A stretch of 64,000 nucleotides of DNA, taken from UHGV virus genome UHGV-0117053. The stretch is one strand, 5' to 3'. The stretch comes from a virus. Both the position numbers and the translations under genes were made by a program. This document shows, piece by piece, positions 30,960 to 32,668 of this stretch (position 1 is its first letter; every line of letters begins with the position of its first letter). The notes under the pieces were generated by a model that had not been told where the DNA came from, did not search any database, and was given only the letters and a program-made list of their open reading frames with translations.

Positions 30960-31850
30960 GTGCCGGGTGCCTCCCGGTGTCCTTTGGCTGGTTATCCACC
31001 GTGGACGTGGAAACAAGGAGAAATAATGGACAGATATAACCATTTCCCCGCGTGCGCTTAGCCGCATTCACCGCAACGGAAAGAGCATTCTTGGTGGACC
31101 TGTAGATTGGGATATGAACCCGTTACAGGAGAATGCTCTTACCTGTTACGTGCTCCGTTTCGTGGAGCTAACGGCGGGTGATCAGGCCGCACCAGACTGG
31201 ACTTATTTCAGCGTTATGCTCATGCCAGAGAATCAAACTGTGATGGTCGGTGCTGAACTCCGACACAGGGTTGTAGCAAGCCCCGCAAAGCGCGCACTAC
31301 TGTAGTTGCGGCACATCAGCCTGTGCATTCACCACAATGTTGAGAACACTGGTTGTCACGCTGCAACGCAACATTTATTCGTAGATTGGGATATGACCCC
31401 GTTACGCCAGTGTTCTCAACGTTGTAGTGCCGGTTACGGTTCCGGCCAGGCCTCTTCCTCAACGGGGTGTTCTCCATACGGACTACCGTTTATTGGTCGT
31501 TCCTGCGGTTTATGTTGTGAAGCCAGATGCTTATCTTCTGGTTGCTTCAAAGAGCTGCACTTCATCACAACGGTAAGAGCACTCGATGCATTTAAGCCAA
31601 GCCCCATAAGGGAGAATGCCCTTACCTGTTGTGTTGTGATGACCGGTGCTGATCTCCGGCTTGCGGTTATTTCAGACTCTCACGGGCGTTTAATTACCCC
31701 GCCGAACAGCTCTTTTCCGCAATAGCTGCAATGTCTTTCGCGCATCAGCCTGCGCATTCATCACAACGGTAAGGGTACTTCGTAGGGATTCGAACCCTCT
31801 GCCAAGCTCGGCGATCTCCGACGTCGCAAAATACCCTTACCTGTTGTGCT
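30960..31850 (-). repeat. Non-coding array of hairpin modules with tRNA T-arm-like cores
   Basis: No credible ORF. Conserved flanks GCATTCAYCRCAA at 31064, 31325, 31558, 31754 and CCCTTACCTGTT at 31136, 31619, 31834 form inverted repeats around T-arm-like hairpins, e.g. GGGATTCGAACCC at 31785-31797. Confidence 0.5.
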
Positions 31851-31852
31851 TG

Positions 31853-31925
31853 TGCCGATTAACGGACTCGAACCGCTGACATCCTGCTTACAAGGCAGGC
31901 GCTCTACCAACTGAGCTAAACCGGC
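31853..31925 (-). tRNA. trnT: tRNA-Thr (anticodon UGU)
   Basis: 73-nt cloverleaf read by hand; anticodon loop CTTGTAA; CCA not encoded. Confidence 0.9.
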
Positions 31926-31927
31926 AT

Positions 31928-32003
31928 TGGCGATGGTGGATGGATTTGAACCATCGACCCGTTGATTAACAGTCAACCGCTCTAACCGCTGAGCTACACC
32001 ATC
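31928..32003 (-). tRNA. trnA: tRNA-Asn (anticodon GUU)
   Basis: 76-nt cloverleaf; anticodon loop CTGTTAA; encoded CCA; 2 nt from trnT. Confidence 0.9.
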
Positions 32004-32668
32004 ACTTGCCGGGTACGTCTCCGGCGAGGGCTTCCACCTCCGTATGCTTTTCGGCGCACCGCGCCCTGGCTGCAATTCGGTAACAGGGGATGCACAACCC
32101 TGGCTTCCAGCGTGATTAGCGCCTTCAGCATGACGGGATATACCCGTAAATTCGTGGAACTGTACCCAAAGTGCTGTTAAGCACCGCTGTTACGCTGAAA
32201 AGAAAACGCAACAGGAAAGGACGCTGACCAACAGATGGCCCCTTCTCGTTCATCTGGTTAATCACACCAGCGCCCTTACCTGTTGTGCCTCCCCGTTCCC
32301 TAATACACAGACGGGGACACTCTGCGGTCGATTTTTTGACGGGGGACGACTCATACCCCGTGGCATCTGGCTTCTTAGGCCGCTACCATCATCAGATCAT
32401 CGTTTGCATTTACTTTAATGGTCAGTTTCTAAACCGCCGCAAAGTCGCTAACCATGACGAAAACCCTAAAAAAAACGCCCACCCGAAGATGGGCAAACTG
32501 GAAGCTCGTAACGCACTTCGGCGTTGCCACTTAGGCGCATGGTCAACCTGGCAACTCGGTGGTTTGTCTGGGAGGACTAGGCCCAGCCATGCTTACCGCC
32601 GCGCCTGTCGCGGCTAACAGCTAAATCGCTCTATAAATCACGATTCATTGAGGCGATATTACACTAAT

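Follow-up and report, generated by a model that had tools for sequence, protein, structure and literature searches.

The tRNA-tciA interval of the ban operon

The DNA analyzed here, a 64,000-nucleotide stretch of the virus genome UHGV-0117053 (henceforth the window), derives from a P1-like phage, and across positions 30900-32700 it displays ~99% identity to JL22, RCS47 and P1. This region bears on its minus strand the ban operon, in which the C1 operator Oban and the ban promoter are followed in order by a segment termed the 'dicF-like region' in P1, the tRNA genes trnA and trnT, a 929-bp gap, the genes tciA, tciB and tciC, the tRNA gene trnI and finally ban (Table 1). The perfect C1 operator, which an earlier note made from the sequence of this stretch had placed upstream of the gap, is indeed present, and the P1 annotation records Obanab together with P1ban/P2ban at the homologous position. 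The gap between trnT and tciA, in which that note had seen no credible open reading frame (ORF) and had proposed a series of tRNA-fragment-like hairpin modules, is the subject of this work. It comprises long hairpins (M1-M4) and tRNA-shaped units with a conserved scaffold (U1, U3 and U4), and positions 30955-31848 constitute, on the minus strand, a non-coding array at the level of RNA.

Table 1. Features of the ban operon leader, the array and its flanks, in the order in which they are met on the minus strand (positions in the window; R1 is the covariance model described in the text)
Feature	Coordinates	Strand	Evidence and remarks
C1 operator Oban, ban promoter	32669-32685	minus	Perfect ATTGCTCTAATAAATTT; inverted repeat I2
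Intrinsic-terminator-like hairpin + U8	32476-32495	minus	Strong; within the P1 'dicF-like region', between ban promoter and trnA, outside the array
Solo 5' half-frame, RNA CACAACAGGUAAGGGC	32272-32287	minus	Repeat D4 and motif scan
tRNA-Asn (trnA)	31928-32003	minus	ARAGORN; Rfam tRNA 74.5 bits
tRNA-Thr (trnT)	31852-31925	minus	ARAGORN; Rfam tRNA 72.9 bits
M4, long hairpin	31762-31848	minus	Fold -41.6 kcal/mol, z -5.5; I9; plus-strand fold -34.4 kcal/mol
U1, canonical tRNA-shaped unit (UUGUGAUGAAUGCGCAGGCUGAUGCGC ... GCCGGAGAUCAGCACCGGUCAUCACAA)	31634-31766	minus	R1 83.7 bits, E 7e-19
M3, long hairpin without T-arm	31563-31641	minus	Fold -36.2 kcal/mol, z -5.6; plus-strand fold -25.6 kcal/mol
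'U2' interval, unclassified; U-like closing sequence, no scaffold	31421-31571	minus	No R1 match; fold z -0.7
M2, long hairpin, 23-nt arms	31330-31429	minus	I1; fold -49.2 kcal/mol, z -6.8
U3, canonical tRNA-shaped unit	31238-31337	minus	R1 73.5 bits, E 2e-16
Spacer X, ending in small hairpin GCUCC-ACGAAAC-GGAGC (31152-31168)	31151-31237	minus	
M1, long hairpin	31072-31150	minus	I3; fold -35 kcal/mol, z -5.2
U4, STnc100-related unit	30955-31076	minus	R1 30 bits, E 1.4e-5, full-length alignment; 3' end ~32 nt upstream of tciA start codon
tciA (TerB family), first protein gene past the array	30497-30922	minus	Pfam TerB 28.4 bits (cut-off 24.4); P1 annotation

A conserved tRNA-shaped scaffold with a variable core

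The most conserved objects of the interval are the U units, which lie in what the earlier note had treated as spacer and were overlooked there. A covariance model (R1) was derived from an alignment (A1) of 47 units of other phages, with no sequence of the window included; across the 64 kb it matches only U1, U3 and U4, in addition to a single noise match at an E-value of 4.2. The units share the layout NNN-UGGUGAAU-GCGCA GGCUGA UGCGC - (variable core) - AAGCCGG AGAUCAGCA CCGGC-CACCA-NNN, and more than 100 distinct variants with this layout were recovered among the viral contigs matching the 5' motif. The variable core spans 25-167 nt, with a median of 68. The closing stem is effectively 7 bp long and the 5-bp 3' hairpin abuts it directly, so that the two form a 7+5 stack like that of the acceptor and T arms in tRNA. 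The 'U2' interval, which is conserved as a block in P1, P7 and D6, possesses only the closing sequence of such a unit.

The pairing of this scaffold is maintained through covariation. In A1, 97.7% of the cells are paired as against 91.7% in shuffles, and the figure falls to 25-55% when the partners are slid; ten pairs have changed on both sides, with none of 500 shuffles reaching the observed value. Two further pairs of the closing stem, which are outside the search pattern, are formed in 84 and 83 of 86 units, as opposed to ~52-56 in shuffles (0/500); this test was anchored on the 3' hairpin only, the 5' hairpin being fixed by the search pattern. The near-invariant loops of the two hairpins, GCUGA and UCAGC, are complementary to each other and predicted to be capable of a kissing interaction, and the 3' loop is likewise outside the search pattern. 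Covariation between the loops comprises one compensatory change in P7 (GACUGA with UCAGU), for which D6 furnishes a G-U intermediate, together with ten G-U variants. Beyond the 7-nt 3' strand of the closing stem, position 8 is an A in 53% of the units and is followed by CC in 48 of 184 and by CCA in 18 of 184. The strand of these elements is also apparent from their energetics, with the sense folds of U units being more stable than the antisense folds (mean -1.7 kcal/mol, p = 5e-7).

The canonical unit U1 has no match in Rfam. A known self-cleaving ribozyme or riboswitch, raised by the CUGAUG motif and the conserved junctions, was rejected as no Rfam family matches and the motif is situated in a hairpin loop rather than in a junction. 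A terminator-like site as defined by a loose rule is found downstream of 35 of 104 units compared with 100 of 400 random windows, L059 and L213 being anecdotal cases. Certain individual units contain recognizable pieces of tRNA: the variable core of the unit in L191 consists of a tRNA D-arm and T-arm, and in L041 and L113 a true T-arm (GGUGGUUCGACUCCAC) replaces the 3' hairpin.

Long hairpins and the junction they share with the units

Each of the four long hairpins folds on the minus strand with -35 to -49 kcal/mol and z-scores of -5.2 to -6.8, none of 200 shuffles being as good, and in stability the RNA fold of the minus strand exceeds that of the plus strand by 3.7-10.6 kcal/mol. The folding of the minus strand recommended by the earlier note bears out its long inverted-repeat stems (inverted repeats I1, I3 and I9) as well as its view of structured non-coding modules on the strand of the tRNAs. 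Its T-arm-like hairpins are likewise found in three modules, as GGGTTCGAATCCC at 31785-31797 (minus reading) in M4 and as GGGTTCATATCCC and GGGGTCATATCCC in M1 and M2. The interior of M4 contains the T-arm-like GGGUUCGAAUCCC, that of M2 GGGGUCAUAUCCC and a second small hairpin, and that of M1 a minihelix-like element, CCUGUA..GGGUUCAUAUCCC..UACAGG-U-CCACCA, whose T-arm has been exactly deleted in vB_EcoM-Ro157c2YLVW (L003, ~950-965). The base of M3 reaches into the 3' strand of U1 and the junction that follows. M3 has two G-U pairs on the minus-strand RNA and is also present alone in other prophages.

Across the family a long hairpin reaching the junction is found directly upstream of 160 of 193 distinct units (87 of 115 in an earlier count). 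The homologous stems are 12-30 bp long, with a median of 18, and the span is ~85 nt. All Watson-Crick pair types occur at every stem position, indicating that pairing is conserved family-wide and sequence is not. The sense strand gives the more stable fold in 181 cases versus 40 for the antisense strand (of 221), with a mean difference of -5 kcal/mol (p = 2e-23). Only 6 of the 87 homologous hairpins contain a strict T-arm; this is ~10x the background rate, but the T-arm was rejected as a feature that defines the hairpins. A hairpin and the unit after it have 4-5 nt in common, which belong both to the 3' strand of the hairpin and to the 5' strand of the closing stem; in the window the pairs M4/U1, M2/U3 and M1/U4 overlap by 5-8 nt, with 5 nt of the M4 3' strand extending into the start of U1. 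Furthermore, the base of the hairpin 5' strand resembles the 3' end of the unit itself in 59 of 160 cases compared with 24.5 in shuffles. The sharing of these nucleotides and the resemblance of the 5' base to the end of the unit together imply that the two helices compete for the junction.

Some smaller features accompany these hairpins. In many frames the 3' strand, in RNA sense, is UGCUCUUAC or UGCUCUUUCC (31130-31143 and 31572-31584 of the window in plus coordinates, in M1 and M3; also L014, L048 and L104), and these resemble boxA (GCUCUUUA), which is bound by NusB/NusE; here the sequence is buried in a stem. Small hairpins with covarying 5-bp stems and fixed loops are found directly 5' of the long hairpins. 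The loop is ACGAAAC in 9 of 218 contexts, one of which is the window (31152-31168, minus), and GAAAGA, reminiscent of lambda boxB, in 11 of 218 with six different stems.

The conserved flanks by which the earlier note had delimited its modules are in part confirmed and in part redefined by this architecture. CCCTTACCTGTTGTG is exact at 31619, 31834 and 32273, with no other site in the 64 kb (3 matches at <=2 mismatches against 0.07 expected), and GCATTCAYCRCAA is exact at 31064, 31325 and 31754; the other two cited copies are degenerate, that at 31136 having 3 mismatches (CTCTTACCTGTTACG) and that at 31558 a 1-base insertion (GCACTTCATCACAA). GCATTCAYCRCAA, however, is not a hairpin flank: its RNA-sense form, UUGYGRUGAAUGC, represents the junction and the first bases of the separate conserved U unit, and the units that start in this manner end in a hairpin followed by YCAYCRCAA (minus-strand reading). 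Similarly, the supposed 'empty site' at 32262-32284, at which two flanks were thought to abut, contains a single flank, the RNA-sense 5' half-frame CACAACAGGUAAGGG. In contig L069 the copy of this solo half-frame is the 5' strand of a complete hairpin and is joined directly to the interior of M3, with trnA, trnT, M4 and U1 lost between two copies of the frame.

Distribution and modular evolution

Composites of hairpin and unit are widespread among temperate phages of Proteobacteria. The 5' motif is present in at least 120 IMG/VR contigs, and 118 species contain an exact copy of a 23-mer from the 5' scaffold, spanning Enterobacterales, many Betaproteobacteria, other Gammaproteobacteria, some Alphaproteobacteria and a few odd metagenome-assembled genomes. 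Among the latter are those labeled Coriobacteriia, Geobacteraceae, Phycisphaerales and Acidobacteriota (L235, L242, L251, L268), for which contaminated bins or a broader range of hosts might be responsible. Without exception the units have the orientation of the operon around them, and tRNA genes in their vicinity lie on the same strand in 36 of 36 cases, a tRNA gene being found within 1.5 kb of 26% of units. The neighboring genes vary, with cI-like repressors upstream and yfdPQR-like early genes, lysis genes or terminase downstream, and no recurrent partner protein gene was found beside the units in the IMG/VR and genome contexts. The ST64B unit comes after the repressor gene with its terminator, which places it in the leader of the next operon.

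U1 itself is found with ~97% identity (window 31632-31768) in lambdoid/Stx phages (L007, L008) and in many E. coli prophages, where it is unannotated; in prophages it stands alone next to a repressor gene. As judged from these sequences, this indicates a recent exchange of a 137-bp RNA module between unrelated types of phages. A comparable modularity is seen among the close relatives of P1. The order trnA-trnT-M4-U1-M3-U2-M2-U3-X-M1-U4 of the window is shared by JL22, L049 and L117. The P1 reference is without U1 and M3, P7 is without M4 and U1 and has another U variant and a tRNA-Ser in place of U3 and X, SJ46 is without M2, U3 and X, and L069 is without the tRNAs; in L014 U1 is placed after M2, and in L018, L183 and L184 M2 directly follows trnT. 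The breakpoints among the P1 relatives fall inside the repeated hairpin frames, which fits homologous recombination and not transposition. The comparison with P1 and its relatives proposed by the earlier note reveals polymorphism by insertion and deletion of whole modules and no conserved reading frame. The repeated frames would account for whole-module variation among the P1-like phage-plasmids, which are common carriers of resistance genes.

Relationship to STnc100/PasD and to other known systems

The Rfam family STnc100 (RF02076) aligns with U4 over 30956-31075 (model positions 31-147) at 41.9 bits and an E-value of 4.9e-7, against a gathering score of 47. By score U4, as well as its relatives at 35-43 bits, is below the 47 bits over 206 positions needed for membership; the core similarity of sequence and structure is significant for U4 and is reproduced in five relatives. 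U4-type units of P1, P7, D6, SJ46 and ST64B match both R1 and STnc100, and U1 and U3 have no STnc100 match at E-values up to 10. A bona fide STnc100, located 75 nt past stx2B in a Stx2a phage, scores 153.8 bits over positions 1-206 and aligns end to end with R1 at 18.1 bits only, with filters off. It is followed by CCCCUCUCCGGAGGGGCUUUUU and its own terminator; U4 instead runs into the ribosome-binding site of tciA, and the scan finds no terminator there. On sequence grounds STnc100 is a distant branch of the family, linked to it via the U4-type intermediates.

STnc100 and PasD have been described as related prophage small RNAs, of which PasD was obtained by Hfq RIL-seq (in which interacting RNAs are ligated and sequenced) and confirmed by Northern blots, and they are located near TerB, Q and lysis genes (bioRxiv 10.64898/2026.05.13.724894). 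Another paper has placed STnc100 downstream of stx2B. In common with U4, STnc100 possesses a UGGUG/CACCA closing stem, a GGUGAAU junction, a 3' hairpin that directly adjoins this stem and a middle part that varies, and STnc100/PasD and the P1 array both reside in operons of temperate phages near TerB-family genes, Q and lysis genes. Unlike the U units, STnc100 has its own terminator and is without the GCUGA/UCAGC loop pair; conversely, the P1 units are without a terminator and occur in tandem, after long hairpins and inside a tRNA operon. The scaffold sequences were not found in the literature searched and no Rfam family besides STnc100 matches, because of which the canonical scaffold with its loop pair, the obligate upstream hairpin, the breadth across Proteobacteria and the tandem arrangement with the P1 tRNAs appear to be undescribed, in distinction to the already known STnc100/PasD. 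Similarly, nothing on RNAs in this interval was found in the literature on P1, the ban operon and tciA. The STnc100/PasD RNAs of enterohemorrhagic and enteropathogenic E. coli and of Salmonella would therewith become part of a much larger and sharply conserved scaffold that is not covered by Rfam.

The array is also reminiscent of several other systems. Bacteriophage T4 produces 'species 1 and 2' (rnaC and rnaD), stable non-tRNA RNAs of ~120-140 nt in its tRNA transcription unit, which are matured by host tRNA processing and whose function is unknown; unlike the P1 array, these belong to a virulent phage, are not preceded by long hairpins and do not form a widespread modular family, and a relation to them in sequence or by model is not expected. 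The stalks at which RNase III processes rRNA operons, early mRNA of T7 and the N leader of lambda are imperfect duplexes of ~18-25 bp that flank a functional RNA within a polycistronic precursor and lie between units needing separation. The M stems are in a similar length range, a likeness of geometry alone, but enclose short variable inserts rather than functional RNA and share 4-5 nt with the next closing stem, an overlap that is not known from the RNase III sites. YrlA, a bacterial Y RNA, and the engineered 'tRNA scaffolds' are cloverleaf-like, with a closing stem stacked on a 3' hairpin, a side-loop interaction and a variable insert at the position of the anticodon arm. In contrast to such tRNA-like RNAs, the loops of the U units are without the T-loop/D-loop consensus and the units have no Ro/Rsr partner; the sole match to YrlA in the region is on the true tRNAs, at 23.9 versus 69 bits. 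Finally, many U units occupy the map position of the HK022 put and lambda nut sites, which are antitermination RNAs in the leaders of early operons: these units lie just downstream of the repressor gene, where the leftward early operon begins, and have the orientation of that operon. However, U units are found in late operons and in tandem as well, and P1 has them although it lacks a system of this kind. A put-like antiterminator was rejected as a candidate, with the best R1 match in HK022 20000-32000 scoring 7.4 bits (E ~1) with filters off.

Transcription and potential functional mechanism

Simple scans recovered no sigma-70-like promoter on either strand within 30400-32750 and no terminator-like site on the minus strand from trnA to tciA. 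Given this absence of internal sites, the array is likely to be co-transcribed with trnA and trnT from the C1-repressed ban promoter. The terminator-like hairpin of the ban leader implies that transcription into the array would require read-through. The leader may make a short RNA first, with the tRNAs, the array and ban then being dependent on read-through.

The reading that we favor, and which we regard as evenly balanced between being right and wrong, is that the array RNA is co-transcribed with the tRNAs and cut by host RNases, which releases stable, scaffolded small RNAs with trans-acting cores. The basic block would be a composite of an M hairpin, with its ~18-bp stem and free-form interior, followed by a U unit. 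The polycistronic precursor would be cut by the host RNases that mature tRNA and rRNA precursors, with RNase III potentially cutting the M stems and RNase P or RNase E the acceptor-like ends. Cutting could free the shared junction nucleotides and allow U to close, resulting in the release of the tRNAs along with stable U RNAs. The conserved scaffold would then serve processing and stability and the variable core would be the working part, most probably a trans-acting base-pairing small RNA by analogy with the Hfq-bound STnc100/PasD. U4 might additionally function as the 5' leader of tciA, and the repeated M frames might act as joints for homologous recombination that shuffles modules between phages. 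The ban operon leader of P1 would on this account be re-annotated with at least three small-RNA-like units besides the tRNAs, and a natural scaffold displaying variable RNA inserts is a possible tool for RNA engineers. P1 is easily induced and mutated, which makes these predictions checkable with standard methods.

Several considerations weigh against this reading. The structure, covariation, strand, family membership, modularity and lack of a conserved ORF are direct observations, and for the P1 array we infer each step that goes past folding and conservation. Approximately 50 scaffold nucleotides are near-invariant from Alpha- to Gammaproteobacteria, which is more than a passive stability scaffold needs and hints at a specific conserved partner or a cis function. 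The canonical units are without the U-tail typical of Hfq small RNAs, and many units are in operon leaders, as in ST64B after the repressor gene and terminator or elsewhere between Q and lysis genes, which also fits a cis role. When the variable cores were compared with the rest of the window the longest complementarity was 13 nt, which is approximately at chance level, and a role of the cores as antisense to P1 genes in the window was rejected with this match. Moreover, the link from canonical U to bona fide STnc100 is by way of intermediate sequences and weak scores, the 5' motif with which the units were collected biases the apparent conservation of the 5' hairpin, and a strong terminator-like site (32476-32495) intervenes between the ban promoter and the array.

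Alternative interpretations

A different view of the same composite, which we think rather doubtful, is that it defines a new class of structured phage RNA, whose ~50 near-invariant scaffold nucleotides, identical in prophages from Alpha- to Gammaproteobacteria, adopt a tRNA-like shape secured by the contact between the loops. The scaffold would interact with a host machine of universal conservation, such as RNase P, RNA polymerase/Rho or the translation machinery, as a 'tRNA scaffold', a cis element or a decoy. The competition between hairpin and unit would then be a processing-coupled switch, with STnc100/PasD being a derived enterobacterial branch. Another proposal, unlikely in our judgment, is that the composite acts in cis on its own transcript, either by conferring resistance to Rho or terminators, as do nut/put by position, or by controlling downstream stability or translation, as does the RNase III site of the lambda N leader, with the cores being filler. 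The placement of units in the leaders of long lytic operons speaks for it: the ST64B unit is between the repressor gene with its terminator and the early-left genes, mEp460 and Stx2a_1447 are organized likewise, a cI-like repressor gene is upstream in 21 IMG/VR and 19 genome contexts, and other units precede terminase or are between Q-like and lysis genes. Further, U4 forms the 5' leader of tciA, the scaffold conservation far exceeds the needs of a carrier, a recurrent partner gene is lacking, and the untranslated RNA that precedes tciA and ban, ~2.4 kb in length, is expected to be accessible to Rho. However, a cis element would not be expected to occur in tandem copies with different cores, or to be present or absent as a single unit among P1 relatives that are otherwise identical, and the described relatives accumulate as discrete Hfq-bound small RNAs, with STnc100 of Stx phages coming after stx2B and having its own terminator. 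Moreover, the immunity region of HK022, in which the put sites lie, gives no R1 match above noise, and the array is downstream of the strong terminator-like site of the ban leader rather than before it.

Two further alternatives derive from the tRNA-like features. The units and T-arm hairpins might be tRNA-mimic decoys, which bind or saturate host factors that recognize the shape of tRNA (defense or colicin nucleases, or processing and modification enzymes) and thereby protect phage translation. This model, which strikes us as improbable, would explain the 7+5 stack with complementary loops at the positions of the tRNA D and T loops, the enrichment of NCC and NCCA after the closing stem, the ~10-fold enrichment of T-arm motifs in M interiors, the tRNA pieces or true T-arm in L191, L041 and L113 and the true tRNA at the M position in L221, the uniform co-orientation with tRNA genes and the hypervariable cores, as an arms race would predict. 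Against it, three-quarters of the units lie more than 1.5 kb from any tRNA gene, the loops depart from the T-loop/D-loop consensus, no tRNA model scores the units and strict T-arms are confined to 6 of 87 hairpins; we know of no defense system countered by tRNA-mimic decoys. The idea of decayed tRNA genes, advanced in the earlier note, has the hairpins as functionless remnants of a larger phage tRNA cluster. The T-arm-like hairpins of M1, M2 and M4, the loss of the M1 T-arm in one relative and the extra tRNAs of the interval in relatives (tRNA-Ser in P7 and D6, tRNA-Tyr in Ro157c2YLVW) lend it weak support. Nevertheless, these extra tRNAs sit outside the hairpin frames, M3 and most homologous hairpins are without a T-arm, and throughout the Proteobacteria the frames and their pairing persist, every position of the stem showing covariation, which is unlike decay. 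The relaxed tRNA searches suggested in the same note (ARAGORN, and Rfam at E-values up to 10) recover trnA, trnT and trnI only, with no M or U module matching tRNA, and the hairpins were accordingly rejected as cryptic tRNAs. Among the 218 homologous upstream contexts, a tRNA occupies the hairpin position in one; in three others a tRNA-Thr immediately precedes the hairpin, and in another a tRNA-Met is called on the opposite strand. The first is L221 (Massilia), in which a genuine tRNA-Gly takes the usual place of the long hairpin and ends 3 nt before GGUG. As the main explanation decay is thus largely refuted, and we see little chance of its being correct.

The remaining suggestion of the earlier note, small palindromic mobile units, would make the modules relatives of miniature inverted-repeat transposable elements or of the repetitive extragenic palindromic (REP) or enterobacterial repetitive intergenic consensus (ERIC) elements that insert into intergenic phage DNA. 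The modules are indeed imperfect palindromes of 60-110 bp, vary in presence among close relatives and recur with ~97% identity in unrelated phage backbones. Yet the hairpin sequences vary with covariation such that family-wide only the pairing and the junction are conserved, fold stability has a strong strand bias, the orientation is fixed relative to the operon, and the rearrangements are recombination-like, with breakpoints inside the repeated frames and neither target-site duplications nor transposase partners seen at the examined loci; this origin is disfavored to the point of being scarcely credible. An even slimmer chance attaches to the interpretation of the interval as a pair of real plus-strand protein genes. 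Plus-strand ORFs of 139 and 63 aa do exist in the gap, and correspond to plp ('putative lipoprotein') and upl, which are annotated in the P1 reference alongside predicted promoters. But neither has a Pfam match and no relative among those compared conserves an ORF in the tRNA-tciA interval: the annotated ORFs have 125, 110 or 139 aa, P7 has none and SJ46 has ORFs on the minus strand, while the RefSeq records annotate tRNAs only in the interval and no coding sequence. The plp and upl frames traverse modules that are inserted or deleted whole, the simple scan found no sigma-70-like promoter for them in the region, and conservation tracks the RNA pairing on the opposite strand. The earlier judgment that there is no credible ORF is therefore upheld, and these two genes, long carried as hypothetical in P1, are probably artefacts that result when structured RNAs are read on their antisense strand.

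Additional observations

The identity of the P1 'dicF-like region' with DicF was rejected, as there is no Rfam DicF match at E-values up to 10. Within 32375-32480 (minus) weak matches to the Rfam permuted and beta tmRNA models were obtained at 23.9 and 15.5 bits (E ~0.03-0.05), which are far below threshold and probably due to chance. No R1 unit was found in CPS-53 of E. coli K-12, the only K-12 prophage checked, despite its yfdPQRST operon, which is often found after U units.

Certain relatives contain additional genes in the equivalent of the interval. In P7 (L005) and D6 (L004; 1338-1425, minus) a tRNA-Ser(UGA) is at the position of spacer X, which among the Rfam models scores best with tRNA-Sec, at 46.6 bits (gathering score 47). 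According to the authors of the D6 study, tRNAscan-SE would not assign an amino acid to the tRNA at this position. In vB_EcoM-Ro157c2YLVW (L003; 1263-1391, 1708-1794) a tRNA-Tyr is present between trnA and trnT and a 42-aa ORF is inside the 'U2' interval. In Klebsiella phage 5 LV-2017 (L009; 1323-2211) Q is followed by a tRNA-Thr, an M3-like hairpin, a U-like closing sequence, a 141-aa tciA-like ORF and an endolysin; this order of features implies that the tRNA-hairpin-tciA cassette of the P1 ban operon is also present in a lambdoid late operon.

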